Assembly (NCBI GenBank): GCA_016788825.1
Contig: JAEUSD010000001.1
Coordinates: 19,391-83,390, forward strand
DNA from: Candidatus Doudnabacteria bacterium
GTDB taxonomy: Bacteria > Patescibacteriota > Dojkabacteria > J137 > JAEUSD01
Direction: 5' to 3'
Length of the DNA: 64,000 nucleotides
The notes under the pieces were generated by a model, which saw nothing but the letters and a program-made list of their open reading frames with translations, searched no databases and was not told the origin of the DNA. How positions within the stretch are numbered: the first letter of the stretch is position 1; each line of letters opens with the position of its first letter. The translations under genes were made by a program, and so were the position numbers. Below are positions 1 to 64,000 of this stretch, in pieces.

Positions 1-2779
1 TAGCCTCGATCTGTTTTGCTAACTCAATTGAAACTTGTTCCCCTTTCTTTGCCAATACTTCTCCGGTCGCAGGGTTTACAAGATCTTCAGCCAAGAATCT
101 TCCAGTAACTCTGCCACTAAATGGCTGATTCCTCTTGTCTGTCTTGGCTAGATAGATACCCTCTTCTGTGTGACAATCCTCTTCTTTGATCACCACATCC
201 TGAGCGACATCAACCAACCTTCTGGTCAGATAACCTGAGTCTGCAGTACGTAGAGCTACGTCTGCGAAGGACTTTCTAGTACCACGAGCTGCAACAAAGT
301 ATTCAAAGTTATTCAAACCACTCTTGTAATTATTCATCAATGGCAGGTCTACAACATTACCCTGTGGGTCCGTTACTGTACCACGTACACCAGAAATGTT
401 TTTTACCCAAGAGGACACAGGTGTAGCACCAGAGTCATTCAAGTGGGTCAAGTTGCTAGACTTTTTACGAGCCAGATTCCATGTCTCATCAGCAATCTGC
501 TCATATATGGCCACCCACAGATCTCTCTGAAGTCTCTGTAATTCCTCTCGTGTAATCAATCCCTCTTCAAAGTCATTCATTAGAGCTTGTTCGCGTTGTG
601 CAAACTCAGCAAGCTTCTCATTTACCATTGGATCAGCTCCAAATTCGAATTCTTCCATAGAGACTGAGAAACCAGATTGCCTAGCAAACTTGAATCCTAG
701 ATCCTTCATGCTATCCAATACTGTAATAGCCTCATCTCGACCGTAGCGGTTGAAGATATCTGCGGTTATGCTCTGTACATCTTTACGTGCCAATGTTTTG
801 TTTACAAATCCGTAACCTGCTGGCAGTATTGAGTTGAAGATGATTCTACCCACAGTTGTGGTAACCATGTCTCCATTTAGCAAGAATTTAACTGGCTCGT
901 ACAGAGAAACATGTCCTAATGCGTATTTGCTATTTGCCTCATCTACACTCGCGAACGCGTGCTTTGGATCTTCAGTTTCTCCCTGCATCAATGTCAGGAA
1001 GTAGATTCCCATCGCCATATCTTTTTCCATGTTCATGATCGGCTGACCATTTGCCATAGACAACATGTTGCTTGGTGCCATCATTCTCTCTTTCACTTCT
1101 TCTACTGCTTGCTTGGAAAGAGGTAGGTGCACAGCCATCTGGTCTCCATCGAAGTCAGCGTTGAATCCACGACACATAAGTGGGTGTAGTTGGATTGAGT
1201 TTCCTTCGATCAAGATTGGGTAGAAGGCTACGATACCTTGCTTGTGCAAAGTCGGAGCACGGTTTAACAATACTGGGCGGTTGCGGCTTACTTCTTCCAA
1301 TATATCCCAGACAACTGGAATCTTCTCTTCGTAAATCATACGGGCTCGAGCAGGGTTTGTAGCATAACCTCTCGCCACTAGCTCACGGACGATAAATGGC
1401 TTGAACAGCTCCAATGCGATATTTTTTGGCAATCCACATTGGTAGTGTTTAAGTTCTGGTCCTGGAACAATAACAGCACGACCAGAATAGTCTACACGCT
1501 TACCCAACAAGTTCTGACGGAATCTACCTTGTTTACCACGTAGCATGTCAGATAGAGACTTGTATGGCAAACCACGAGAGTTGGATGTTGGGGCACCGGG
1601 ACGGTGACTGTTATCCAACAATGCATCCACAGCTTCTTGTAACATTCTGCGCTCGTTTCGCAAGATAATCTGAGGTGCCCCCAGATCCATCAAACGACGT
1701 AGGCGGTTATTGCGGTTAATCACACGACGATAAAGATCGTTTAGATCTGAAGTTGCGAATCGGCCTCCAGGTAACTGAATGATTGGGCGCAAATCCGGAG
1801 GTAATACCGGTAGTACATCTAGTACAACCCACTCTGGATTTACATTAGCCTGCTTCATCCCGTTAACTATCTTTTTGCGCTGGATAGCACGAGCTTTCTT
1901 CAATTCAGATTTTGTATTTGCAATAGTATCATCGAGTTCAGCAATCAACTTGTCTAAGTCGAGTGCTTGTAATAATGTGCGAACAGCTGGAGCACCCATG
2001 TCAGCTTGGTAGAAGTCAAAGCCTAGGCTCATGATATCGTTCTGTTCCTCCTCTGAAAGGGTGAAGCCAACTTCAATTTGTTCTACCAAAGAAGCCAAGG
2101 TCTTAAATTTTTCTTCCAAGTTCTCCAACTTTTGATTGTAAGCCGACTTGATGTGCGCCTGTTTCTTGCGCTCATCTCCGCGCATACGCTCAAGATGTAC
2201 ACCTAGTTTCTGCTCATCTTTTTCTTGTTTGCGTGCATCAGCTGTCTTCTCTTCTGATTCTTTCGTTATCTCAGCTAGCTTCGATTCTAGCTCAGCTTGT
2301 AATTCAGCAACCTGTTGGTCTTTGATCTCGGAGATCTTGGCAATCGCTTCTGCTTTGCCGTTATCTTCGACAGAGGTTACAACGTAACGCGCGTAGTAGA
2401 TCACAGTTTCCAATTTCTTTTGTGGAATATCCAAGATCAGGGCCAATTTGTTGGGCACACCGTGAGAAAACCACACGTGAGTCACTGGAGACACAAGGCG
2501 GATATGCCCCATGCGTTCGCGACGTACGCGTTTGTGAGTTACTTCTACCCCACAACGGTCACAGACAATACCCTTGTAACGAACCTTTTTGTACTTACCA
2601 CAGAAACACTCAAAGTCTCTGGAAGGTCCAAAGATCTTTTCATCCATCAAACCATCCACCTCCGGTCGGAAAGTACGATAGTTGATAGTTTCAGCCTTGG
2701 TTACTTCTCCGTGAGACCATGACATCATGTCCTCTGGTGAAGCCAACACTATTCTGATTGCATCGAAGTCGCGAATCAT
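1..2779 (-). CDS. rpoC: DNA-directed RNA polymerase subunit beta' (N-terminal ~925 aa; the 3' end runs off the window edge)
   Basis: The reverse-strand reading frame is open from the ATG at 2777-2779 to position 1. Translation begins MIRDFDAIRIVLASPEDMMSWSHGEVTKAETINYRTFRPE. It contains the zinc-finger CGKYKKVRYKGIVCDRCGVEV and the catalytic NADFDGDQMAVH motif. It lies 30 bp downstream of rpoB. It is absent from the ORF track only because it has no stop inside the window. Confidence 0.93.
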   Translation of the reverse strand, partial: MIRDFDAIRIVLASPEDMMSWSHGEVTKAETINYRTFRPEVDGLMDEKIFGPSRDFECFCGKYKKVRYKGIVCDRCGVEVTHKRVRRERMGHIRLVSPVTHVWFSHGVPNKLALILDIPQKKLETVIYYARYVVTSVEDNGKAEAIAKISEIKDQQVAELQAELESKLAEITKESEEKTADARKQEKDEQKLGVHLERMRGDERKKQAHIKSAYNQKLENLEEKFKTLASLVEQIEVGFTLSEEEQNDIMSLGFDFYQADMGAPAVRTLLQALDLDKLIAELDDTIANTKSELKKARAIQRKKIVNGMKQANVNPEWVVLDVLPVLPPDLRPIIQLPGGRFATSDLNDLYRRVINRNNRLRRLMDLGAPQIILRNERRMLQEAVDALLDNSHRPGAPTSNSRGLPYKSLSDMLRGKQGRFRQNLLGKRVDYSGRAVIVPGPELKHYQCGLPKNIALELFKPFIVRELVARGYATNPARARMIYEEKIPVVWDILEEVSRNRPVLLNRAPTLHKQGIVAFYPILIEGNSIQLHPLMCRGFNADFDGDQMAVHLPLSKQAVEEVKERMMAPSNMLSMANGQPIMNMEKDMAMGIYFLTLMQGETEDPKHAFASVDEANSKYALGHVSLYEPVKFLLNGDMVTTTVGRIIFNSILPAGYGFVNKTLARKDVQSITADIFNRYGRDEAITVLDSMKDLGFKFARQSGFSVSMEEFEFGADPMVNEKLAEFAQREQALMNDFEEGLITREELQRLQRDLWVAIYEQIADETWNLARKKSSNLTHLNDSGATPVSSWVKNISGVRGTVTDPQGNVVDLPLMNNYKSGLNNFEYFVAARGTRKSFADVALRTADSGYLTRRLVDVAQDVVIKEEDCHTEEGIYLAKTDKRNQPFSGRVTGRFLAEDLVNPATGEVLAKKGEQVSIELAKQIEA

Positions 2780-2809
2780 AGTTGTTTATTAATAATATTA
2801 GTTAATAAA

Positions 2810-5800
2810 TTAAACCGCTGCCTCGTCAGTCCCCTCGTTCACTTCAAATCCACCCTCTGGACTTTCAAGTTCGGCTACTACTTGGGCTTGGTCTGCTGCA
2901 GGAGTATTTTCACCAATACTATCTACAATCTCATCCAAGCTTGCATTTTCAATAAATGGATCCACCACCGCTCCGATCTTTTCCAACTTCACACATAGAG
3001 CAGCCAATTCTCGATCAAATACATTGAATGACTCTGGTACAGATGGGACTGTTACATCCTGCCCTGTGATGATTGATTTGTATGCTGCGGAACGTCCTAC
3101 CAAATCGTCTGACTTGATAGTCAACATCTCGTGCAATACATAAGGTACTCCATGTGCTTCTAGTGCCCATACTTCCATTTCTCCGAACCTCTGTCCTCCA
3201 CGTTGAGCCTTACCTCCAAGAGGTTGCTGAGTAACCATGGTGTATGGTCCAGTTGAACGAGCATGTACCTTGTGGTCAGCCAAGTGCTCTAACTTGAAGA
3301 AGTACCTTGGTCCAACTGTAACCTTCTGGTCATATGGTTGTCCCGTGCGTCCATCAAATAGAGCAACTTTCTCTTCATAATCAACGCCGGCTTTCTTGGC
3401 CATATCCATCAATGGTGCAGTATCGTAGTCAGTAAATGGAGGGATTTCTACACGAACTCCCAATTTTGCTGCTAGTGCACCGATATGCGCCTCCATCAGC
3501 TGTCCCACATTCATACGACGAACCATAGATCCTGGTCCGACAATGATATCTACTGGCTCACCGTCTGCTGTATAAGGCATATCTTCTTGTGGAAGAATTT
3601 TGGTGATAACACCTTTATCTCCGTGATACCCTGTCAACTTGTCTCCTACAGAGATCTTGTGAGTCTTTGCAACCCAGACTTTCACTTGTTTGATCACACC
3701 AGGGTTAAGTTTTGCACCAGTGTTTTTGTCTAATATTTGTACACTTACCACTACTCCACGGTCTCCGTGAGGAAGGCGAAGTGAGTTGTCACGCACATCT
3801 CGAGCATAGTCTCCAAAGATCGCTCGTAGCAATTTTTCTTCAGCGCTCAGCTCTGTTTCCCCTTTAGGAGCAATAATTCCTACCAAGATATCGTTTGGCT
3901 CAACATGAGCTCCTACACGTACTACTCCACCCTCGTCCAAGTTTCTTAGAGCATGTTCACCAACATTTGGAATATCTCGAGTAATCTGTTCATCACCCAA
4001 TTTTGTCTCACGAATTTCTTGAGTGTACTCGTAGATATGAACTGAAGTTAGGACATCTTCTTTGAGTAACCTCTCTGAGATCACAATTCCGTCTTCATAG
4101 TTGTACCCATCGTACACAATGTAAGCAGTACGTAGGTTAGCTCCAAGAGCGATCTCTCCGTTTGCTGTACATGGGGCATTGATGATTACCTGTCCCTCTT
4201 CGATCTTATCTCCACGCTTTACAGCTGGGGTTTGGGAGAAAGAGGTAGATTGGTTTGTGCGGCTAAAGGTTTCTATCTCATACTCTTTCTTATACTTCTT
4301 ACCTTTAGCCGGTGTGTATTCAACAATTACTTTGTCCGCATCTGCGTAGGACACAACCCCCTCAGCCTCAGCGTAGACATTACGGCCTGTCGCCTTTGCT
4401 GCAACCTTCTCAAAACCTGTCCCTACAATTGGTGGATCTTGTCTCAACAAAGGCACAGCCTGAGTTTGAGTCTTAGATCCGATTAGGGTGCGGTTTGGGT
4501 CATCCATGGAGGCGAATGGGATCAATGACAACCCCAAACCGCCAATCTGTGCAGGGCTGACATCTACCAAGTCTACCTCTGAAACCTCTACTTTGAGGTA
4601 GGTACGGCCATCACGCACATAAGTCTTATCTTCTAACATGTTTCCCTTTGCATCTGTGTGAACACTTCCGCTAGCGATCTTGTACCTCAGCTCTGTCTCG
4701 GCATCCAAGTAAACAACCTCGTCTGTTACAAAAGGCACGATCTTGATCTCGGTCAAGCCTGCTTTATCTGCAGCCTTCACAAGACTATCACTCAGTTCAT
4801 CGCCCTTTTTTGCAATCACTTTTCCTTTATCATCATGTAGATCACTCCAGATTGCACGGCCTTTGAAGTCTGCCAATTTGTCTTGTCCAATCTTAAACTT
4901 GTTCACAACTTTCATGTACGGAGCTTCCAAGAAACCGAAGTCATTCAAACGAGAGAATACAGACATGTGCATTACAACCCCGATAGATGGACCTTCTGGT
5001 GTATTTACTGGACAAATCTTAGAGTAGTGAGAGTTATGTACATCACGAACAGAGAACGTTGCACGCTCTTTGGTCAAACCACGTGGTCCACCTGCAGTGA
5101 TACGTCTCTTCGTCTCAATCTCGCTCAACACATTCTGTTGATCCATAAACCTAGATAGCGCGCTTCCACCAAAGAACTGGTTGATTGCGGCGATTACTGG
5201 CCTGGTGTTGATGAGCATCGAAGGAGTAATGTTGTCGTCAGTAGAGTAAAGACTCATTCTGTCTTTTATATTCTTCTCCATTCGAAGTACTCCAACACGG
5301 ATCTTGTCGGCGATAAGCTCACCAACTCCGCGGATGCGACGGTTGATCAAACTATCAATATCGTCCACTGGGCGACGACCGTTATTCACTTCGATCAAGG
5401 CTCTTACAATTTGAACAATGTCTTCTCTATTTAATAGATAGTCGGCCGGAGTGATATCTTTATCAATGTTTAGTTTTTTGTTTAGCTTGTAACGTCCGAC
5501 TTTACCCAAGAAGAAACGGCGCTTATTGAAGAATAATCCTTCGATAAACTCACGTGCATTCTCGATAGTTACAGAGTCCTCTGGACGAAGCTTGCGGTAG
5601 ATTTCAATAAGCGCCTCATCTGTATTATGGCTAGGATCTTTCTTCAAAGTAGCATCCACGAAGCTAACTTCGCCATTATCCACATCTTCCAAAACCTTGC
5701 GGATCTGATCATTGGATGAATATCCTAACGCACGCAACAATGTAGTCAACAAAATCTTAGGGTGCTTCTCCAACAACTTCACACTCATTACTCCGTATTT

Positions 5801-10550: not shown

Positions 10551-11194
10551 TTCATTTCAAACTCCCTTAATTCCTCTACTACTGGGTTGACTAGTTGATC
10601 AGTGATATCTGAAGGTTTTATGGTGCAAACAGAAAAAATCTGCTGCTCTATTCTTTGCATACCTCGCGCAAGTTGTTCGAACTTCTGGGGATCTTCTTGG
10701 GTATTTTTGTTCAAGGCAAACCGACTTCTCCCCTCTTGCATACGTTCTTCCAGTGAGGTTACCCCAAAAGGTGTGACACGGTGATCGCTGTACGCACAGA
10801 TCTTTTTTGCAGTATCAGAATGAACCGCATTCTCCAATGCCTTGGAAAAACCGATGGCACTCAATAAGTCCATTACACGTGTCGGCTGATTAAGTTCTCG
10901 CGCGATTTCGTGGGTAGCTACATGCTCATCGGTTCCGTACTTACCCACGAAATCGCGCTTCACCCCCTCCCAATATTCAAGTCCCTGAGGTTGGAGAAAA
11001 TCCGGAAAAAGGTCGAGTTTGAACTTCAAAATATTTCCCATGTCATGCAGCAAGCAGGCTGCAGTTATCTCCGAAACCTCACCCAAACCAGGAGTGTTCA
11101 GAGCTATTACTCTAGCCACTGCCGCAACTCTCAACATATGGAGCTGCAGACTTGGCATAATTTGATACTGTTCGTAAATGCTAGTAATGGTCAT
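10538..11194 (-). CDS. HD-domain phosphohydrolase
   Basis: 218 aa. H..HD motif (AACLLHDMGNILKF), consistent with the HD superfamily. Confidence 0.7.
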   Translation of the reverse strand: MTITSIYEQYQIMPSLQLHMLRVAAVARVIALNTPGLGEVSEITAACLLHDMGNILKFKLDLFPDFLQPQGLEYWEGVKRDFVGKYGTDEHVATHEIARELNQPTRVMDLLSAIGFSKALENAVHSDTAKKICAYSDHRVTPFGVTSLEERMQEGRSRFALNKNTQEDPQKFEQLARGMQRIEQQIFSVCTIKPSDITDQLVNPVVEELREFEMNQKS

Positions 11195-53854: not shown

Positions 53855-55651
53855 ATGACAACGAAGCTAGAAATTCAAAAACTCCTCGCAGAGGCACTAC
53901 AAAAGTGTTTTGCTGTTAGCAAACAACCAGACCAGGTTCACCTTGAACGCCCAGCTGATTACTCCCATGGTGATTGGGCGAGCAATATCCCTATGGTTTT
54001 GGCGAAGGAGCTGAAGCAAAATCCAAAGCAAATAGCCGAAAAATTGGTTGCCGAGATTTCTGCAGATAAAGGCGCGTTGTTGCAAAGTGTAGAAGTTGCA
54101 GGTCCAGGGTTTATAAACTTCAGAGTACTAGATTCGGTACTGGTCGGAGAACTTGAGGAGATTGCGAGACTTAAAGAAAAGTTCGGACATCAACAAATAA
54201 ACTCAGGGAAAGTGATTCTAGTTGAGCATACCTCACCTAACCCGAACAAAGAATTTCACCTAGGACATTTAAAGAATAATGTTACAGGTCTTGCGGTTAG
54301 TTACCTACTTGAAGCATCTGGCGCAAAAATCTTTCGTGATTGTATAAACAATAATAGAGGGATAGCTATCGTTAAACTAATGTGGGGCTATCTACGATTC
54401 GGTCGAAAGGATGAAAAAGTCGTAACGGATGTTCATTACTGGTTTGAACACCAGCAAGAGTGGCATACTCCGGGATCAATCGGCTTAAAGCCAGATAGGT
54501 TCATGGATAAAATGTACACTTCGGGAGCACATGACTTCAAGAATTCTCCTGAGGTGGAGGGTATTTTGAGACAGATGTTACTAGATTGGGAAGCAGAAGA
54601 GCCTCACGTGTGGGCTTTGTGGAAATTAACTCAGGATTGGGTATGGGAGGGTTATGAGAGGTCTATAGGTAGGGTGGATGGGTTTAAATTTGACCGAATT
54701 TGGAACGAACATGAGATTTACAAGAAAGGAAAGGAACATGTATTGGCGGGTCTCGAAAAGGGGGTTTTCAAAAAGACAGAAGATGGGGCAATAGTGAGTG
54801 ATTTGAAGGAATTTAATCTGTCAGACACTATCTTAGTTCGTGGCGATGGAACAAGTCTTTACATAACCCAAGATATTGAGCTAACAAACTTGAAGAGAGA
54901 GACTTTTCATCCCGACCAAATGTTTTGGGTGATTGGTCCAGAGCAGAGCTTGGCAATGAAGCAGATGTTCGCTGTTTGCAGCTTGCTGGGGTTTGGGCGT
55001 TATGAAGATTTTCACCATATTTCTTATGGTTTCGTGTCGATTAGAAACGCAGAGGGTAAAGTATCGAAGATGAGTTCTAGGGATGGTACGGCAATTTATG
55101 TAGACGATCTTATCGATTTGGCGAAGGAAAAAGTACTTAATTATATTGATGAAAGCATTCTGGGTGAGGAACGAGATCAAATTGCTGAACAGGTCGCAAT
55201 AGGGGCGATAAAATATAGTCTTTTAAAAGTTTCTAGAACTACTGATCAGGTTTTTGATATCGATACAACACTAAGTTTGGAAGGTGATTCCGGTCCTTAC
55301 ATCCTATACTCTTATGCGAGGGCGCAGGCGATATTGAAGAAGTCAAATCTGCAGGAGTATTCGGTTGATACTGACTGGGAAATTTCCGAGATAGAGCGAG
55401 AGTTGATGCATAAGCTGAGCACCTTTCCTGAAGTAGTCTCTTTGGCTATTGAGATATACGCGCCAAATATTGTGGCGGGGTATGTCTATGAACTGGCCCA
55501 GATTTTTAACAATTTTTATACTCATACGATTATTCTTAAAGCTGAATCTGAGAAACTGAAGTTGAATAGGCTGATGCTTGTTAAGGGGTTTCAGCAGGTG
55601 ATGCATAATGCGTTAGGTATCCTCGGGATCGAACCGTTGGACAAGATGTAG
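53855..55651 (+). CDS. argS: arginyl-tRNA synthetase
   Basis: 598 aa. N-terminal Arg_tRNA_synt_N domain. Class I HIGH-type motif (PNPNKEFHLGHLKNNVTG). C-terminal DALR anticodon-binding domain (ends ...GIEPLDKM). Confidence 0.9.
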   Translation: MTTKLEIQKLLAEALQKCFAVSKQPDQVHLERPADYSHGDWASNIPMVLAKELKQNPKQIAEKLVAEISADKGALLQSVEVAGPGFINFRVLDSVLVGELEEIARLKEKFGHQQINSGKVILVEHTSPNPNKEFHLGHLKNNVTGLAVSYLLEASGAKIFRDCINNNRGIAIVKLMWGYLRFGRKDEKVVTDVHYWFEHQQEWHTPGSIGLKPDRFMDKMYTSGAHDFKNSPEVEGILRQMLLDWEAEEPHVWALWKLTQDWVWEGYERSIGRVDGFKFDRIWNEHEIYKKGKEHVLAGLEKGVFKKTEDGAIVSDLKEFNLSDTILVRGDGTSLYITQDIELTNLKRETFHPDQMFWVIGPEQSLAMKQMFAVCSLLGFGRYEDFHHISYGFVSIRNAEGKVSKMSSRDGTAIYVDDLIDLAKEKVLNYIDESILGEERDQIAEQVAIGAIKYSLLKVSRTTDQVFDIDTTLSLEGDSGPYILYSYARAQAILKKSNLQEYSVDTDWEISEIERELMHKLSTFPEVVSLAIEIYAPNIVAGYVYELAQIFNNFYTHTIILKAESEKLKLNRLMLVKGFQQVMHNALGILGIEPLDKM

Positions 55652-57154: not shown

Positions 57155-59665
57155 TCATGGCAATATTTTAGTCGGTAGGGATAGTTTTGCAACTGTCTTT
57201 TCGATGTCTATCCCTTCTCCCAATACTCCTTTCCATAGGTCACCCTCTTTGTCCAGGCGGTTGCGCATCGTTTTGATAGTAAATTCGGCGGGGTCTAGGC
57301 GCGCGGTGACTTCTGACCACTTCAACGGGGTGGATACCCGCGCGCCGGCAATTGGACGAACGGAGTAGGCGCAAGCCGTTGTTTGGCCTTTGCGATTTTG
57401 CAAATAATCAATGTAGACTTTTCCTTGGCGGTCCTCAGGCTTGCGCTCAAGACTGACCAGTTTTGGCAAACGACTTTGGATTTCGACGGCTACCAATTCG
57501 GCAAAAAGCTTCACTTGCTCAAAGTTGTATTTAGCCGCAAGCGGTAGATAGATGTGCAATCCTCGTTTGCCGGATGTTTTGCAAAATGCAGGAACTTCCA
57601 GGTTTTCACAAAGTTTGTGCAATTCTTGGGCAACTTTCACCACATTACTAAAGTGTGTGCTTTCTGGGTCCAAATCAAACAGAATGTAGTCAGGTTTCTC
57701 TAGGCTTGTAACCCGTGAATTCCACGGGTTGATCTCGATACAGCCAAGGTTTGCCAAAAATAGAAGTGTCTCTTTGTTTTGGCAAAGAATATAGTCAAGT
57801 TCTCGATCATTTGATTCGGAGTAGATTTTCTCTTGTTTTACATAGTCAGGAACATCTTGAGTGTAGTCTTTGTGGTAAAAGCTTTCACCTGAGATACCGT
57901 TGGGGTGACGGTTTAGGTTTTGTGGTCGATCAACTAAGTACGGCAGCATGAGTTCTCCGACGTCGTTGTAGTATTCGAGTAAGTCACGCTTTGTATATTT
58001 ATCTTTGGGCCAGTAGATTTTCTCCAGATGCGTAAACTCTAAGTCCGGTAATTCTTTAGCCTCGGGAGGTGTCACTTTTTGTTCGGCCTGGACCTCTTTT
58101 GCATTTTTGTCTTTGCGCAGGCCGAGGAAGACTGGGTGGCGCAGGAGGTGTTCGTCAGTCCATTCTGTGAATTTCACCTGCGCCACATACTTAGGACTCA
58201 CCCACTGAGCAACAGTTTTGGAGTCGATGAGGTCTGTATTTGTGAAAGGTGGATTCTTCAATGCAGACTTATCCAAGAGCGCTTTTATCTCTTGGATGTT
58301 ATGCGAGTTAAATCCAGTTCCGACATGACCTCTAAATAGAAGTTCCCCTTTATCGTATTCGGCCAATAATAATGAACCAAAACCTTTCTGGCTTCCTTTT
58401 GGTTTTGTATAACCGCCGATCACGAATTCGCGCTCGTTTGCGATTTTGATTTTCAGCCAATCCTTTGAACGCCCAGAGGCATATTTGCTGCTTTTCTTCT
58501 TCGCGATAATCCCTTCTAACCCAAGCTTCTTTGCACTTTCGAACAAGCTCTTTCCATCTGCAAAAACTTCACTTAGCTGTATATGTTTAGAAGGTTTGAT
58601 GATTTGCTTCAAGATCTCTTGACGCTTTTCCAAACTTAGATCGCGCAAATCGAACTTGTCGAAATAGAGGATGTCAAAGATGTAGTAAATGAGTTTTTGC
58701 GGTGTACCTTTTTTGTAGTTTTGGAGCAACTGGAAGCGCGGAACGCCTTTGTTGTCTATGGCGACAACTTCTCCATCAAGTAACAGGGTTCCAGGTAGCT
58801 GCTCCAATGCTGATACGATCTGGGGAAAGTCAGGGTTGAAATCTTGATCGTTGCGCGAATAAAGCCTGACTTTCCCATCCTTTATCTGGGCCAATGCACG
58901 GTACCCGTCCCATTTGAGCTCATAAAACCATTTATCGTTAGTAAACTCATCAGATAGGCTGGCAAGCATTGGCTCCACGTTTTCAGGCAACTTTGCTTTC
59001 TCAGGTTTCCCTATCTCAATATTAGGGCTTTCCGGTTCTGAAATTGGTTCTTCTTTGGGCCAGCTGACTTTCTTGTGTTTTTTGCCTTCTGTTATCTCGT
59101 CCATTGTTCTGCCTGAGCGAACTGATAGATCTTGCTGGGGGATTACTTTGTTTGCTGCTTCGTCATCGTGCTTGATCAGTAGCCAAGAGTTGTTTTTGGA
59201 GGAGAATTTGTTCTTAATTTTTACAATGGCGAACTCTCCATGTAGCTTGTGGCCGTGAAGTCTAAATTTCAAGTGTCCGTCTTTGAGATGTCGCTTCACG
59301 GCCTGTTCCTCGTTTTCATCGGCGTGGACTATCAGGGGAGAGTAGGTTCCTTCATCCCAGATCATCACGGTGCCGGCACCGTAGTTTCCTTCTGGAATGG
59401 TGCCTTCGAAATTGTTGTACTCCATTGGGTGATCCTCCACTTCCATAGCGAGGCGTTTTTCATGTGGGTCCAGGGTGGGACCTTTGGGCACTGCCCAGCT
59501 TTTCATCACCCCTTCATTCTCTAAACGGAGGTCAAAGTGCAGGTGTGATGCTGCGTGTTTTTGGACTACGAAGCGGAGCCGCGCGGGCTTTTCAGGTTTA
59601 ACGGTACCGCGCGGCTCCGGAGTATTTTTGAAATTGCGCTTTTGATGATATTTTTTAAGAGGCAT
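57155..59665 (-). CDS. ligD: multidomain ATP-dependent DNA ligase D (PE - ligase - Pol domains) for non-homologous end joining
   Basis: 836 aa. N-terminal 3'-phosphoesterase domain (HAASHLHFDLRLE). Central ligase with the KxDG adenylation motif (ELKWDGYRA). C-terminal primase-polymerase domain (ILFDLDP...GKRGLHIYLPL). Confidence 0.9.
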   Translation of the reverse strand: MPLKKYHQKRNFKNTPEPRGTVKPEKPARLRFVVQKHAASHLHFDLRLENEGVMKSWAVPKGPTLDPHEKRLAMEVEDHPMEYNNFEGTIPEGNYGAGTVMIWDEGTYSPLIVHADENEEQAVKRHLKDGHLKFRLHGHKLHGEFAIVKIKNKFSSKNNSWLLIKHDDEAANKVIPQQDLSVRSGRTMDEITEGKKHKKVSWPKEEPISEPESPNIEIGKPEKAKLPENVEPMLASLSDEFTNDKWFYELKWDGYRALAQIKDGKVRLYSRNDQDFNPDFPQIVSALEQLPGTLLLDGEVVAIDNKGVPRFQLLQNYKKGTPQKLIYYIFDILYFDKFDLRDLSLEKRQEILKQIIKPSKHIQLSEVFADGKSLFESAKKLGLEGIIAKKKSSKYASGRSKDWLKIKIANEREFVIGGYTKPKGSQKGFGSLLLAEYDKGELLFRGHVGTGFNSHNIQEIKALLDKSALKNPPFTNTDLIDSKTVAQWVSPKYVAQVKFTEWTDEHLLRHPVFLGLRKDKNAKEVQAEQKVTPPEAKELPDLEFTHLEKIYWPKDKYTKRDLLEYYNDVGELMLPYLVDRPQNLNRHPNGISGESFYHKDYTQDVPDYVKQEKIYSESNDRELDYILCQNKETLLFLANLGCIEINPWNSRVTSLEKPDYILFDLDPESTHFSNVVKVAQELHKLCENLEVPAFCKTSGKRGLHIYLPLAAKYNFEQVKLFAELVAVEIQSRLPKLVSLERKPEDRQGKVYIDYLQNRKGQTTACAYSVRPIAGARVSTPLKWSEVTARLDPAEFTIKTMRNRLDKEGDLWKGVLGEGIDIEKTVAKLSLPTKILP

Positions 59666-60443
59666 GACTTGCTGCTTTGAATTTCGTGAGACTTTCTTGC
59701 AGTAGTTTTGTGAGGTCGTCAGCGTCGATCTTGTGGTGCTCGGCTGGCTTATTTACTTGAATTGTCTTATGCTTGGCTTTGGCCTCGATGAGCTTCTTGA
59801 GCTTGGCGATATAGTCATCTTTGTAATCAGAGATATCAAACTCTTCGGACATTTTCTTGATCAGTTCTAATGCCATGTCCAATTCTTTTTCGTTTACATC
59901 TACGTTGCCGGGTAGATCTAGTCCCTTGGCGGATCTCACTTCTTCTTCGTATCTCATCTGGTTGAGGATCAGCATGTTTCCCTTGGGGGCAATCAGGCAA
60001 AGTCTTTCTCTGTTCCGCATCACGAACTCGGCGACTCCGACTTTGCCAGACTTCTTCAGTGCTTTATTCAGCAATGCATACAGTTTCTTGGCTTTGGGGT
60101 CTGGTTCGAGATAGTAGGGAGTATCGAAATATATTGGGTCAACGTCGACTTCGTCTACAAACGATGTGATTTCTAGGTTCTGGCTTTTTTCCATGTCTAC
60201 TTTTTCGAAGTCGTCAGGTTCTAGGACGACATAGCTACCTTTTTTATGTTCATAGCCTTTGACGACGTCTTTCCAGGCGATTTCCTCGCCTGTTTTGGCG
60301 TTGATGCGTGCGTAGCGGATGGGGGCTTTATCCTTTTTGCTGAGTAGGTCTAGGTCAAGCTGAATAGCGTTTGTGGCGCTGTACAATCTGACTGGGATGT
60401 ATACAAGTCCAAATGTTACTCCTCCGGTCCAAATTGGTCGCAT
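59655..60443 (-). CDS. ku: Ku DNA end-binding protein
   Basis: 262 aa. Ku core begins MRPIWTGGVTFGLVYIPVRLYSA. An 11-bp overlap with ligD indicates an operon. Confidence 0.9.
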   Translation of the reverse strand: MRPIWTGGVTFGLVYIPVRLYSATNAIQLDLDLLSKKDKAPIRYARINAKTGEEIAWKDVVKGYEHKKGSYVVLEPDDFEKVDMEKSQNLEITSFVDEVDVDPIYFDTPYYLEPDPKAKKLYALLNKALKKSGKVGVAEFVMRNRERLCLIAPKGNMLILNQMRYEEEVRSAKGLDLPGNVDVNEKELDMALELIKKMSEEFDISDYKDDYIAKLKKLIEAKAKHKTIQVNKPAEHHKIDADDLTKLLQESLTKFKAASHAS

Positions 60444-60460
60444 GGGTTATTCTATATGAA

Positions 60461-60853
60461 TTAGCTTAACCGCTCAAGCTTTCCTTTTTTCTTCACAATA
60501 TTCTTGTAGTCCCACTGGATTTCTCTGCCTTTTTGCAGCCAGCGTTTGAGGTCGTCTGTACTAACTTCATCGATAGATGTGTAGAAAATAGATGCATCTT
60601 TGAATTTCCCGCCTTTTACATCCAAGCCAGCTTCTTCGAAGCTGGCACCGCTCCAAAACATTAGCCGAAGTCCAGCCTTCTGTTTGCTGTAACCTACGAT
60701 CGGATTCCCACCTAAAAACCACACAGGATGTTTATGCCAAACTTTACTTTCTGCTTCTGGTAGGCCTTTATCTATTTCCGCGGCCAAAAGCTCACAAATC
60801 TCTTTATCTGCTGGGGATAGCTTGTCGTTGTAGGTTGCGATGTCAGTATGCAT
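60461..60853 (-). CDS. DUF1801 (YdhG/YdeI-like) domain protein
   Basis: 130 aa. The pattern ...KVWHKHPVWFLGGNPIVGYSKQKAGLRLMFWSG... fits the DUF1801 fold. Immediately upstream of ku on the same strand. Confidence 0.55.
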   Translation of the reverse strand: MHTDIATYNDKLSPADKEICELLAAEIDKGLPEAESKVWHKHPVWFLGGNPIVGYSKQKAGLRLMFWSGASFEEAGLDVKGGKFKDASIFYTSIDEVSTDDLKRWLQKGREIQWDYKNIVKKKGKLERLS

Positions 60854-60925
60854 TTTGTTTGATTAATCGAATAATATAGTGGTCTTGTCTTTGAAAATCA
60901 AGATATATTAAGCTTGGGGTTGGCG

Positions 60926-61504
60926 TCAGCATAAGGCCTCAGCAAACAGAAGTACATTACTCATTTGATTGAACAGCCCTGCCCTCTGAGACATAGGTAT
61001 AAAGTATTCTTTGGTCTCGTAGATATAGCGTTTTTTCTTTTCTGTATCTTCAATAAACTGTACACCAATTAGGTTTGTAATCCTATCGCAGATCTTTATT
61101 TGCATTGCACCGAGAGCAAGTCGTTCATTAATTTCAATATAATCAAAGATTCTTTTGTAATAAGCTGCCACCGAACTTTCATCTTTATTATCGAAGTCGT
61201 TTGGCTTGGTACAGAGCTCCACCATAACCCTTACATTACTACCAAATCTAGTTTCAATCTTTTCCAAACTAACATTATGGTCCTCGACAATATCATGAAG
61301 TATTCCAGCTATAAGTATGTCTTGGTCTTCTACGCCCGAAACAATTAATTGTTCCAACACTGCATTTAGGTGTCCCCAATACGGGTATGGTGATAGCTCA
61401 TCTTGAACTTGGTATACAAGACTTCTTTTTTCACCCTTTGCGGATTTAGTAACTAAATCGAGGGCTTTTATTATTTCTGCAATACTTATATCCTTTGTGC
61501 TCAT
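60926..61504 (-). CDS. HD-domain hydrolase (small RelA/SpoT-like or YfbR-like HD)
   Basis: Probable start MSTKDISIAEII (ATG at 61502-61504); the ORF track's longer 61648 start would overlap the upstream gene. HD motif GILHDIVED. Confidence 0.62.
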   Translation of the reverse strand: MSTKDISIAEIIKALDLVTKSAKGEKRSLVYQVQDELSPYPYWGHLNAVLEQLIVSGVEDQDILIAGILHDIVEDHNVSLEKIETRFGSNVRVMVELCTKPNDFDNKDESSVAAYYKRIFDYIEINERLALGAMQIKICDRITNLIGVQFIEDTEKKKRYIYETKEYFIPMSQRAGLFNQMSNVLLFAEALC

Positions 61505-61505
61505 T

Positions 61506-62216
61506 CTATTTATACTCCACCACAGCCAACCAGATACAATCTGAGACTGCTTCGTACTGGTGCCAGGGGTAATTAAAGTCTTTATCGTAAAAAGTGTCGT
61601 GAGAGAATCCGGGTGCCATATAGACCCGTTGATACAGACTCTGGTCATCTTGTTCTTTAAACTTGTTCATAATTCCCAAACCATAAATTTGGGTATGGAA
61701 CTCTTTAGGGAACGGGTGAGTATTATGAATGCTGGAGGCTGTATCGCTGGGTAGGAACCAGCAATTGAACTCAAGGTTTCCAATACGCTCTACCGGAGAG
61801 CGGAGTATTTTGTATACCCATTTAGTGGGATCATTGGGATAGCGTTTCTGGTTGTTGTCCCAGTTCTCAGTGCAATATTTATTTAGGTCCGGATTAGTTC
61901 TGGCTGGGTCAAAGGCAAATGTCAAAAGAATGGCTTTGGAAATCTTGGACTCCAGTTCAAAATCTTTCAAGAGATATGACTTCGAAGGAAGTAGAGTATT
62001 GTAAGCGTCAATTATGATAGGCTCATCAGAAATATTGATAAGTAAGCCATACTGAGAAATTTCAAGCACATCCAAATCCTCAAGGAGTTCGGCATCGAAG
62101 AATTTATTAGAGAAGCTAAGTTTTGTTCGCATAGATAATAATACACTAGCTCTTTGATTTTTTACCTTCAAGTTCCAGCTTATCCGACTCATCTCTATGA
62201 ACGCCATCTGTGCCAT
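61506..62216 (-). CDS. hypothetical protein (AT-rich)
   Basis: 236 aa ORF whose TAG stop lies 2 bp from the HD-protein start. AT-rich codon usage. No motif recognised, although an H/D-rich segment (SSIHNTHPFPKEFH) might be metal-binding. Confidence 0.5.
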   Translation of the reverse strand: MAQMAFIEMSRISWNLKVKNQRASVLLSMRTKLSFSNKFFDAELLEDLDVLEISQYGLLINISDEPIIIDAYNTLLPSKSYLLKDFELESKISKAILLTFAFDPARTNPDLNKYCTENWDNNQKRYPNDPTKWVYKILRSPVERIGNLEFNCWFLPSDTASSIHNTHPFPKEFHTQIYGLGIMNKFKEQDDQSLYQRVYMAPGFSHDTFYDKDFNYPWHQYEAVSDCIWLAVVEYK

Positions 62217-62400
62217 GTAGTATTAATACATTTTTCATTCTATATTTAATAATTTCTAAGTAATTGATTTCCACATAAATCACTTCTTTTAATAGATTCA
62301 AAGTTGTTGCTACTGAACTTGTGTGCAGAAATAATATTAGCTTTGTTTCTATTAAACAGTTTTTTAAAAATCATGTTTTATACATAATATTAGATTAATA

Positions 62401-62485
62401 CGGAGAGGACAGGATTCGAACCTGCGATCCCTTGCGGAACACCCGTTTTCGAGACGGGCCCTTTCAACCACTCAGGCACCTCTCC
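62401..62485 (-). tRNA. tRNA-Ser (anticodon CGA), class II
   Basis: The reverse complement folds as GGAGAGG TG CCTGAGTGGTTGAAAGGG C CCGTC TCGAAAA? The anticodon stem-loop is CCCGT CTCGAAA ACGGG with anticodon CGA. Long variable arm, T-arm AGGTTCGAATCCT, discriminator G. Confidence 0.85.
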
Positions 62486-62564
62486 GTAGTCGATTATATC
62501 AATAAGTTCGTGAAACGCGCAGAAGTCTTGTTTAAAGTATATACATAGATATATACTAGGTTCT

Positions 62565-62915
62565 ATGGATACACAACAAACAACAACGTTACCAACTACT
62601 AATGATGTGCCTGTGGCGGCAGCGGGGGAAGCCTCGTCTGCGCAGCCTGGGACGTCCGCCGATGCCGCCACATTAGGGCGTATCAAAAGTTTAGGTGAAG
62701 TGGGGACTGCCTTGGTGGAGATGTCTAATGGCCGCAACTTCGATACAAATATTTTCTCGGCTCGAACTGCGCTTCAAGAATTCCGTGATGGGATTGCGAA
62801 GCTCAATCTTGAACCTCAACTACAAAAGGGGATGGATGATCTGATGAAAATTCTGGAAGATATGCTTGGCAAAAAGATGCAGGATACTTTCGATACACCA
62901 CAGCAGAATTTTTAA
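62565..62915 (+). CDS. small hypothetical protein between two tRNA genes
   Basis: 116 aa. GC-rich, with a Thr/Ala/Gly-rich N-terminal half and a helical C-terminal half. No motif. Confidence 0.35.
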   Translation: MDTQQTTTLPTTNDVPVAAAGEASSAQPGTSADAATLGRIKSLGEVGTALVEMSNGRNFDTNIFSARTALQEFRDGIAKLNLEPQLQKGMDDLMKILEDMLGKKMQDTFDTPQQNF

Positions 62916-62918
62916 ATT

Positions 62919-62992
62919 TGCACTCGGCAGGACTCGAACCTGCAACCTTTTCTTCCGCAAAGAAATGCTCTATCCAGTTGAGCTACGAATGC
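62919..62992 (-). tRNA. tRNA-Arg (anticodon GCG as read; unusual G34)
   Basis: The reverse complement GCATTCGTAGCTCAACTGGATAGAGCA TTTCT TTGCGGA AGAAA AGGTTGCAGGTTCGAGTCCTGCCGAGTGCA is near-identical in its acceptor/D/T arms to E. coli tRNA-Arg. The anticodon loop is TTGCGGA, giving anticodon GCG. Discriminator A. Confidence 0.75.
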
Positions 62993-63705: not shown

Positions 63706-64000
63706 ATGGGTCGCTTAATTTATTATGAACAGCCTCAAGTACTGTGTAAAGTATTAGATCAATTAGACCAAGCCCCAGGTTGGGAGAAAGTGTTAGAGTG
63801 GATTCAGTTGCAAACTGAAACTGACCCAATGAAAATATTCTATGAGCTTCTTGCGTGCCGTGAATTTATTAAGGATATACTTAATGCAGTGGGTGATAAT
63901 AGACTACAGGTCTTGGAAAGTATGCGTGAATGTCTGCACAGTGGGAATAGGGACCTATTATCATCTGTGGAATATACTAAGTGGTTTGTAGCCCTTAATA
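63706..64000 (+). CDS. hypothetical protein (5' partial view; continues beyond window)
   Basis: The open frame from the ATG at 63706 (MGRLIYYEQPQVL...) reaches the window end without a stop. Confidence 0.35.
   Translation, partial: MGRLIYYEQPQVLCKVLDQLDQAPGWEKVLEWIQLQTETDPMKIFYELLACREFIKDILNAVGDNRLQVLESMRECLHSGNRDLLSSVEYTKWFVALN

Follow-up and report, generated by a model that had tools for sequence, protein, structure and literature searches.

The Candidatus Doudnabacteria contig JAEUSD010000001.1 carries, within the 64,000-nucleotide stretch analyzed here (hereafter the window), a bacterial nonhomologous end joining (NHEJ) module, ku-ligD. Upstream of ku, on the same strand, lie genes for a DUF1801 protein, an HD-type hydrolase, and a protein with a double β-barrel cupin (bicupin) fold, and an initial annotation had read all five as an extended NHEJ operon or, alternatively, as a horizontally acquired cassette. 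Instead, the NHEJ module is a standard one whose host is unusual, and a strain-variable islet adjoins it. Identity plots and per-gene divergence against a closely related strain establish that the conserved unit is Ku-LigD, and that the DUF1801, HD, and bicupin genes fall within a tract exchanged between close strains. Taken as a whole, the locus is most probably a conventional ku-ligD module beside a recombination-prone, AT-rich slot that holds unrelated cargo, a reading we hold with high confidence.

The Ku-LigD module

LigD contains a 3′-phosphoesterase (PE) domain at residues 35-149, an ATP-dependent ligase domain at 233-520, and a polymerase domain of the archaeo-eukaryotic primase (AEP) type (Prim-Pol) at 558-811, which are matched in that order by the Pfam families LigD_N, DNA_ligase_A_M/C, and LigD_Prim-Pol. 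The NCBIfam equivalog models are passed by the whole protein (TIGR02776, 576 bits, cut-off 373) as well as by the PE (TIGR02777, 216 bits, cut-off 144), ligase (TIGR02779, 316 bits, cut-off 228), and polymerase (TIGR02778, 248 bits, cut-off 215; also PF21686, 299 bits) domains, and the best whole-protein model, NF004628, aligns over the full length at 837 bits. The ligase domain displays the motifs KWDGYR, DGE, EGIIAK, and WLKIK, including the KxDG adenylation lysine, while FDLDP, SGKRGLH, and IDYLQN in the polymerase domain correspond to DxD, SGxxGxH, and D..N. Within the PE domain, KHAASHLHFDLR and DHPMEY hold the His/His/Asp/Arg and His/Tyr residues that we take to be essential from work on the Pseudomonas aeruginosa enzyme. 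Sequence matches in the Protein Data Bank (PDB) were obtained for the PE (2LJ6, 3N9B), ligase (1VS0, 6NHZ), and polymerase (2FAO, 5DMU) domains. Ku is recognized by the core β-barrel domain model PF02735 (156.9 bits) and by the equivalog model TIGR02772 (296 bits, cut-off 150). The initial annotation was exact in reporting a complete Ku/LigD pair, an 11-bp gene overlap, and a PE-Lig-Pol domain order; the genome is labeled Candidatus Doudnabacteria by its source.

The same pair was recovered, by exact-sequence look-up of Ku, on a 12-kb contig from another sample (L001) that represents a ∼98% identical strain. LigD and Ku share 97.8% nucleotide identity between the two strains, with ratios of nonsynonymous to synonymous divergence (dN/dS) of 0.063 and 0.016, respectively, and Ku displays no amino acid change at all despite 2.2% nucleotide differences. 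Judged from its sequence, ku-ligD is an intact two-gene bacterial NHEJ module under strong purifying selection.

In the characterized bacterial NHEJ family, Ku binds break ends and recruits LigD, whose PE domain makes 3′-OH ends, whose polymerase fills gaps preferentially with ribonucleotides, and whose ligase seals the break (PMC8656161). By analogy, the pair described here would act through a Ku homodimer that binds double-strand break ends and then recruits LigD, with the PE domain healing 3′ ends, the AEP polymerase filling gaps with a preference for ribonucleotides, and the ligase domain sealing the break; ku and ligD may be translationally coupled through their overlap. We infer both the end-joining activity and the transcription units of the locus. 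The module resembles the P. aeruginosa type of NHEJ in domain content, PE-Lig-Pol order, catalytic motifs, and the co-oriented, side-by-side arrangement of ku and ligD, and differs from it in a host labeled as belonging to a candidate phylum (Doudnabacteria). LigD is ∼45-50% identical to LigDs from named phyla, and its own clade (55-67% identity) is seen only in low-GC contigs of metagenome-assembled genomes (MAGs).

The strain-variable tract upstream of ku

The two strains share a DUF5673 gene, a 116-aa gene, tRNA-Arg, and tRNA-Ser on one side of the variable region and Ku, LigD, LiaF-like, PspC, arginyl-tRNA synthetase (ArgRS), and ADK genes on the other. Sliding identity to L001 remains at 97-100% from position 64000 to ∼62610 and from the Ku start codon (60443) to 55622. 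Between ∼62600 and 60444 it falls to 5-82%, and high identity returns exactly at the Ku ATG. Alignment blocks from blastn stop at 60854 and 62389. The interval in between (60855-62388), comprising the bicupin gene, the HD gene, and a 72-nt spacer, corresponds in L001 to 573 bp coding for a 177-aa DUF4202 protein, and the HD and bicupin genes are absent from that strain. These two genes constitute a strain-specific islet, swapped for the DUF4202 gene in the sister strain. The synteny check proposed by the initial annotation next to the tRNAs consequently has a divided outcome: the flanks and Ku-LigD are the same in both strains, whereas the islet is replaced by the DUF4202 cassette. In L001, the DUF4202 gene (3549-4082) lies 1 nt from the DUF1801 start.

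DUF1801 itself is present in both strains as a deeply diverged allele, with 80.5% nucleotide identity and a synonymous divergence (dS) of ∼2.0, compared with 0.03-0.10 for the flanking genes; its dN/dS of 0.035 indicates purifying selection. At the other end of the tract, the tRNA-Ser(CGA) copies (62400-62486 in the window, 3413-3498 in L001) are identical in the anticodon arm and the 3′ half and differ in the D-arm and variable arm, which places the start of the exchanged tract within the 5′ half of tRNA-Ser or further upstream.

Composition points to the same interval. The islet has a GC content of 0.367, the lowest of all 1534-bp segments in the 64 kb (mean 0.444, sd 0.021), and the alternative cassette of L001 is equally AT-rich (0.368). 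The AT-richness of the islet, already remarked upon in the initial annotation, is real and beyond chance. Among 55 genes, both GC and GC at third codon positions (GC3) reach their minimum in the HD gene (z -2.7 and -2.5, respectively), whereas LigD, Ku, and DUF1801 are native in GC, GC3, and codon usage. No integrase or recombinase was found among the open reading frames (ORFs) of 57-64 kb, and a search of 60600-62600 found no att-like direct repeat of the tRNA 3′ end that would mark the far border. Atypical composition and strain polymorphism thus coincide for about 60444-62600 only and do not extend to Ku-LigD. The suggestion of an acquired cassette accordingly holds for this tract, which is replaced in L001, and fails for Ku-LigD, with its native composition and presence in both strains; likewise, the composition check proposed for 60461-62216 singles out the HD gene and the islet as atypical and leaves DUF1801 native. 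Ku-LigD did not reach this strain recently, and the slot downstream of tRNA-Ser(CGA) is recombination-prone, AT-rich, and holds unrelated cargo.

Older movement of the pair is another matter. Here Ku-LigD lies between an ArgRS-PspC-LiaF cluster and tRNA-Ser, whereas its nearest relatives occupy different loci: an iPGM-sortase-PPDK neighborhood in three contigs, and two other contexts besides. Transfer of NHEJ genes between bacteria is documented (PMC7719229), and the native composition of the pair, its stability between strains, and its different loci in the nearest relatives fit a history in which ku and ligD, by themselves, were transferred or relocated at an earlier time. The window and the related loci have no housekeeping orthologues in common against which the divergence of Ku-LigD could be calibrated. 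In one of the relatives (L181), a 490-aa large serine recombinase abuts tRNA-His 3.8 kb upstream of Ku (1909-3463), and tRNA-Arg(TCT) and tRNA-Lys(CTT) are situated just downstream of LigD (10592-10839); the Ku-LigD pair of L181 may ride on an integrative element.

Table 1. Features of the ku-ligD locus and its upstream region, with positions in the window
Feature	Position	Strand	Remarks
ligD	57155-59665	-	836 aa; three-domain DNA ligase D: 3′-phosphoesterase, ATP-dependent ligase, AEP polymerase
ku	59655-60443	-	bacterial Ku, 262 aa; overlap with ligD exactly 11 bp
DUF1801/YdhG-like (frataxin-like fold) protein	60461-60853	-	130 aa; within the variable tract
HD protein, stand-alone RelA/SpoT-type hydrolase (putative small alarmone hydrolase, HD_4)	60926-61504	-	192 aa from the ATG at 61504; strain-specific
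Uncharacterized bicupin, putative metalloprotein	61506-62132	-	208 aa; ORF readable to 62216 (236 aa); strain-specific
AT-rich noncoding spacer, tRNA-Ser to bicupin gene	62133-62399		GC 0.262; unalignable with L001
Strain-variable tract	60444-62600		DUF1801 allele, islet 60855-62388, 5′ part and upstream region of tRNA-Ser
tRNA-Ser(CGA)	62400-62486	-	ARAGORN and Rfam, 58.8 bits; marks the upstream edge of the variable tract
tRNA-Arg(GCG)	62919-62992	-	ARAGORN and Rfam, 67.9 bits; conserved flank, also present in L001
116-aa ORF between the two tRNAs	62565-62915	+	no family match; conserved in L001

The gene inventory of the initial annotation stands in its essentials (Table 1), with the ORF list and domain matches bearing out all five minus-strand genes and their identities and with ARAGORN and Rfam confirming tRNA-Ser(CGA) and tRNA-Arg upstream. 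The stack it described as tight is co-oriented and contains the 11-bp overlap and a 1-nt gap between the bicupin stop and the HD start (TAG-A-ATG, where 2 bp had been reported), but it is not uniformly tight, with 72 nt between HD and DUF1801 and 17 nt between DUF1801 and Ku. The 236-aa ORF reported for the most upstream gene exists (61506-62216); its start is probably M29, since all homologues are 205-210 aa long and NCBI annotates the same protein, recorded under a "Candidatus Doudnabacteria bacterium" MAG, with 208 aa. Scans for promoter- and terminator-like sites gave results at chance level (11 promoter-like sites versus 10.9 expected; 9 terminator-like sites versus 6.5), and an Rfam search of 56.5-64 kb at permissive E-values returned the two tRNAs and no other RNA element.

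Several further observations concern the surroundings. A 16-nt inverted repeat (62288-62356; 88% complementary, 37-nt spacer) lies within the GC-0.26 spacer downstream of tRNA-Ser. The 116-aa ORF between the tRNAs is probably a real gene, given its dN/dS of 0.04 against L001, and its codon usage deviates more than that of any other gene in the window (B z = 2.6). On the far side of LigD, the first ∼267 nt of the ArgRS gene (53855-55651) are ∼99% identical to L001, and the remaining ∼1.5 kb (54122-55621) give no blastn alignment; the two ArgRS proteins (598 versus 593 aa) are only 43% identical, compared with 98-99% for the flanking ADK, PspC, and LiaF-like genes. The ArgRS gene looks like an intragenic mosaic or a xenologous replacement of an aminoacyl-tRNA synthetase.

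The three upstream proteins and their occurrence elsewhere

The DUF1801 protein matches PF08818 at 35 bits (cut-off 27.2) and has the YdhG-like fold. The characterized member of this family, YdhG/Fra, is a frataxin-like iron donor (PMC10855754). The protein encoded here differs from the YdhG/Fra frataxin-like proteins of Firmicutes in being only 15% identical to the solved relative and in belonging to a distinct 130-aa subfamily, whose members are 65-77% identical across Bacteroidota, Acidobacteriota, Proteobacteria, Verrucomicrobiota, and others. This subfamily sits in a conserved small-gene neighborhood, as seen in 80 species-representative loci (L018-L097) retrieved with ±8 kb of flanking sequence: a DUF2200-like gene of ∼121 aa comes next in 28 of them, and PhnB/VOC-like, glyoxalase, SRPBCC, and OmdA-like genes are frequent companions. 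In tblastn searches of the same loci, neither Ku nor LigD was detected near the DUF1801 gene (0/80), and the closest non-self homologue (74% identity) likewise has no Ku nearby.

The HD protein matches HD_4 (2.8e-11, 43.8 bits, cut-off 27.2), contains no synthetase or regulatory domains, and aligns with TIGR00691 at model positions 13-151 of 687 only, which is the hydrolase part. It carries the motifs PYWGH, HDIVED, and KICDRITN, and its PDB hits include Rel hydrolase domains, Mesh1, and small alarmone hydrolases (SAHs) from bacteria; from sequence, it is assigned as a stand-alone alarmone-type hydrolase. By analogy with that family, it would hydrolyze (p)ppGpp or (p)ppApp-type nucleotides. 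Similarities to SAHs and Mesh1 include the single HD_4 domain, the length of 192 aa, and the His, HD, ED, and K..DR..N motifs; the differences are an identity of only ∼30% to any phage, plasmid, or PDB relative and the lack of an adjacent partner synthetase. PHROGs returned generic phosphohydrolase families only. A phage origin of the HD and bicupin genes was also considered and rejected, as scans of viral contigs gave no relatives of either.

The most upstream protein has a double β-barrel cupin fold, although no Pfam or NCBIfam family matched at E ≤ 0.01 and no curated cupin model was hit. The two proteins for which the initial annotation proposed profile searches are thus assigned as a bicupin outside any Pfam family and an HD_4 alarmone-type hydrolase. 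H136, H139, E144, H146, and H191 are invariant across 26 homologues and form a putative metal-binding motif of noncanonical spacing. The protein differs from the bicupin domain of fungal aldos-2-ulose dehydratase (PDB 4A7K/4A7Y) and from the bacterial bicupins BacB and OxdC in its low sequence identity (14%), the absence of a Pfam cupin match, its motif HxxHx4ExH in place of the canonical GX5HXHX3-4EX6G, and its free-standing 208-aa architecture. We infer that it is probably a metalloenzyme whose substrate would be a small molecule resembling a sugar. Its homologues occur in varied contexts: in Dojkabacteria (L003-L005, 5001-5624), between two GIY-YIG genes and with a dCMP deaminase; in a Sedimentisphaerales MAG, near CRISPR and transposase genes; in Clostridium, alone; in other contigs resembling the candidate phyla radiation (CPR), beside SDR or SLT genes; and on a Shinella plasmid (L186, 7001-7654), among sugar ABC-transporter, Gfo/Idh/MocA, and sugar-isomerase genes. 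In none of the contexts examined does an HD gene, Ku, or LigD stand alongside.

The search from the Ku side gave the same picture. At 80 metagenome Ku loci, which served as a negative co-occurrence sample and are unsuited to synteny, no relative of DUF1801, HD, bicupin, or DUF4202 was found (0/80), with L001 recovered as the positive control. At the six loci with the closest LigD (LigD 61-64% and Ku 72-76% identical in amino acids; contig GC 31-35%), ku and ligD again adjoin each other directly on one strand (they abut in L183 and overlap in the other five), while the genes upstream differ in every context and none of the six loci matches DUF1801, HD, bicupin, or DUF4202. One of them, L182, does contain a different DUF1801 gene (120 aa), which is encoded on the opposite strand at a distance of 2.8 kb and has OmdA, HTH, and AHSA1 genes around it. 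Our literature search retrieved no paper linking DUF1801 with LigD. None of the three genes upstream of ku is a conserved NHEJ factor; most likely they are independent cargo. The initial annotation had proposed the HD and DUF1801 proteins as NHEJ accessory factors in an extended operon, and had made that proposal dependent on co-occurrence with ku/ligD elsewhere; since none was seen at the 80 DUF1801, 80 Ku, and six closest Ku-LigD loci surveyed, the idea fails on its own terms.

Competing interpretations and significance

Several observations nevertheless weigh against treating the upstream genes as cargo. All five genes, or at least DUF1801-Ku-LigD with the HD hydrolase, could form one functional NHEJ operon in which HD and DUF1801 serve as accessory factors, for example, in nucleotide or alarmone control or in end processing. 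The genes share a strand, with gaps of 1, 72, and 17 nt and the 11-bp overlap, and no terminator-like site was found between them on the minus strand, so that read-through across all five is possible. Although the DUF1801 alleles have diverged deeply, the gene immediately precedes Ku in either strain, at a distance of 17-30 nt; this retention, together with its constraint, makes a lineage-specific functional link between DUF1801 and Ku conceivable. The slot holds an HD-superfamily gene in both strains as well, since the HD_4 protein here and the DUF4202 protein of L001, whose gene is as close to DUF1801 as noted above, each pass PF01966 at about 23 bits, and two HD-superfamily cassettes in one slot would be unlikely if cargo were random. 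Sampling also limits the case for cargo: the lineage is represented by only two strains, the six related loci amount to about four independent contexts, and the 80 metagenome Ku loci are distant (≤45% identity to Ku) and high in GC. A single operon is nonetheless unlikely in our estimation. The combination occurs nowhere else (0/80, 0/80, and 0/6 loci), the characterized DUF1801 member donates iron, the HD gene is foreign in composition, and the SAH and bicupin genes are missing from a ∼98% identical strain in which Ku and LigD are still strongly constrained. Beyond the superfamily-level PF01966 matches, no pairwise similarity between HD and DUF4202 is detectable (E 0.35), and the presence of an HD-superfamily gene in both slots may be a coincidence between only two strains. 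A further reading, in which the slot upstream of ku-ligD is selected in this Doudnabacteria lineage to hold the frataxin-like DUF1801 and some HD-superfamily phosphohydrolase, with alarmone hydrolase and DUF4202 as non-orthologous replacements of each other, strikes us as quite improbable. If it were true, nucleotide or alarmone hydrolysis would be coupled to end joining in nongrowing, small-genome cells, with a possible role in gating or supplying the ribonucleotide-preferring LigD polymerase.

Another possibility is a single genomic island, acquired recently at the tRNA-Ser/tRNA-Arg site and comprising the complete five-gene block. It has in its favor the bordering tRNA genes, the AT-richness of a part of the block, the known horizontal mobility of NHEJ genes (PMC7719229), and the different loci of Ku-LigD in relatives, where three independent contexts have tRNAs close by and, in one case, a large serine recombinase abutting tRNA-His is 3.8 kb away. 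It is quite improbable all the same, because LigD, Ku, and DUF1801 are compositionally native, Ku-LigD is present in both strains with dS similar to that of the flanking core genes, polymorphism is confined to 60444-62600, and neither an integrase in 57-64 kb nor a tRNA 3′-end repeat at the far border was found. Least probable of all, and barely credible, is a toxin-antitoxin or defense function of the toxSAS/SAH type, in which the bicupin gene would encode the toxin and the HD gene an alarmone hydrolase that counteracts it. SAHs are known as antitoxins of toxSAS toxins (PMC7229694), and the 1-nt gap, the strain-specific AT-rich islet, and the sporadic phyletic distribution of both families would suit such a pair; the upstream protein, however, is a bicupin rather than a RelA/SpoT homologue (RSH) nucleotidyltransferase, with no RelA_SpoT Pfam match, and on that ground we discarded this interpretation. 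Moreover, PADLOC returned nothing for the bicupin and only a weak BrxF-model match for HD (E 0.0091, 14 bits), homologues of the bicupin never have an HD neighbor, and the scans of viral contigs gave no relatives of either protein.

With a conventional ku-ligD module beside a variable slot as the preferred reading, a tempting but unsupported annotation of HD and DUF1801 as NHEJ accessory factors is removed, and the locus illustrates cleanly how, in a CPR population, genes are swapped on a kilobase scale at a hot spot next to a tRNA. The bicupin assignment gives a fold to a family that has no Pfam model and comprises about 137 representative clusters. The literature that we searched contains no description of NHEJ in Patescibacteria/CPR, and the occurrence of NHEJ in a CPR-labeled MAG is mildly notable. 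Large genome size and/or slow growth are reported correlates of NHEJ in bacteria (PMC7719229); an intact, selected Ku-LigD in a candidate-phylum bacterium runs counter to the association with large genomes and fits the slow-growth correlate.

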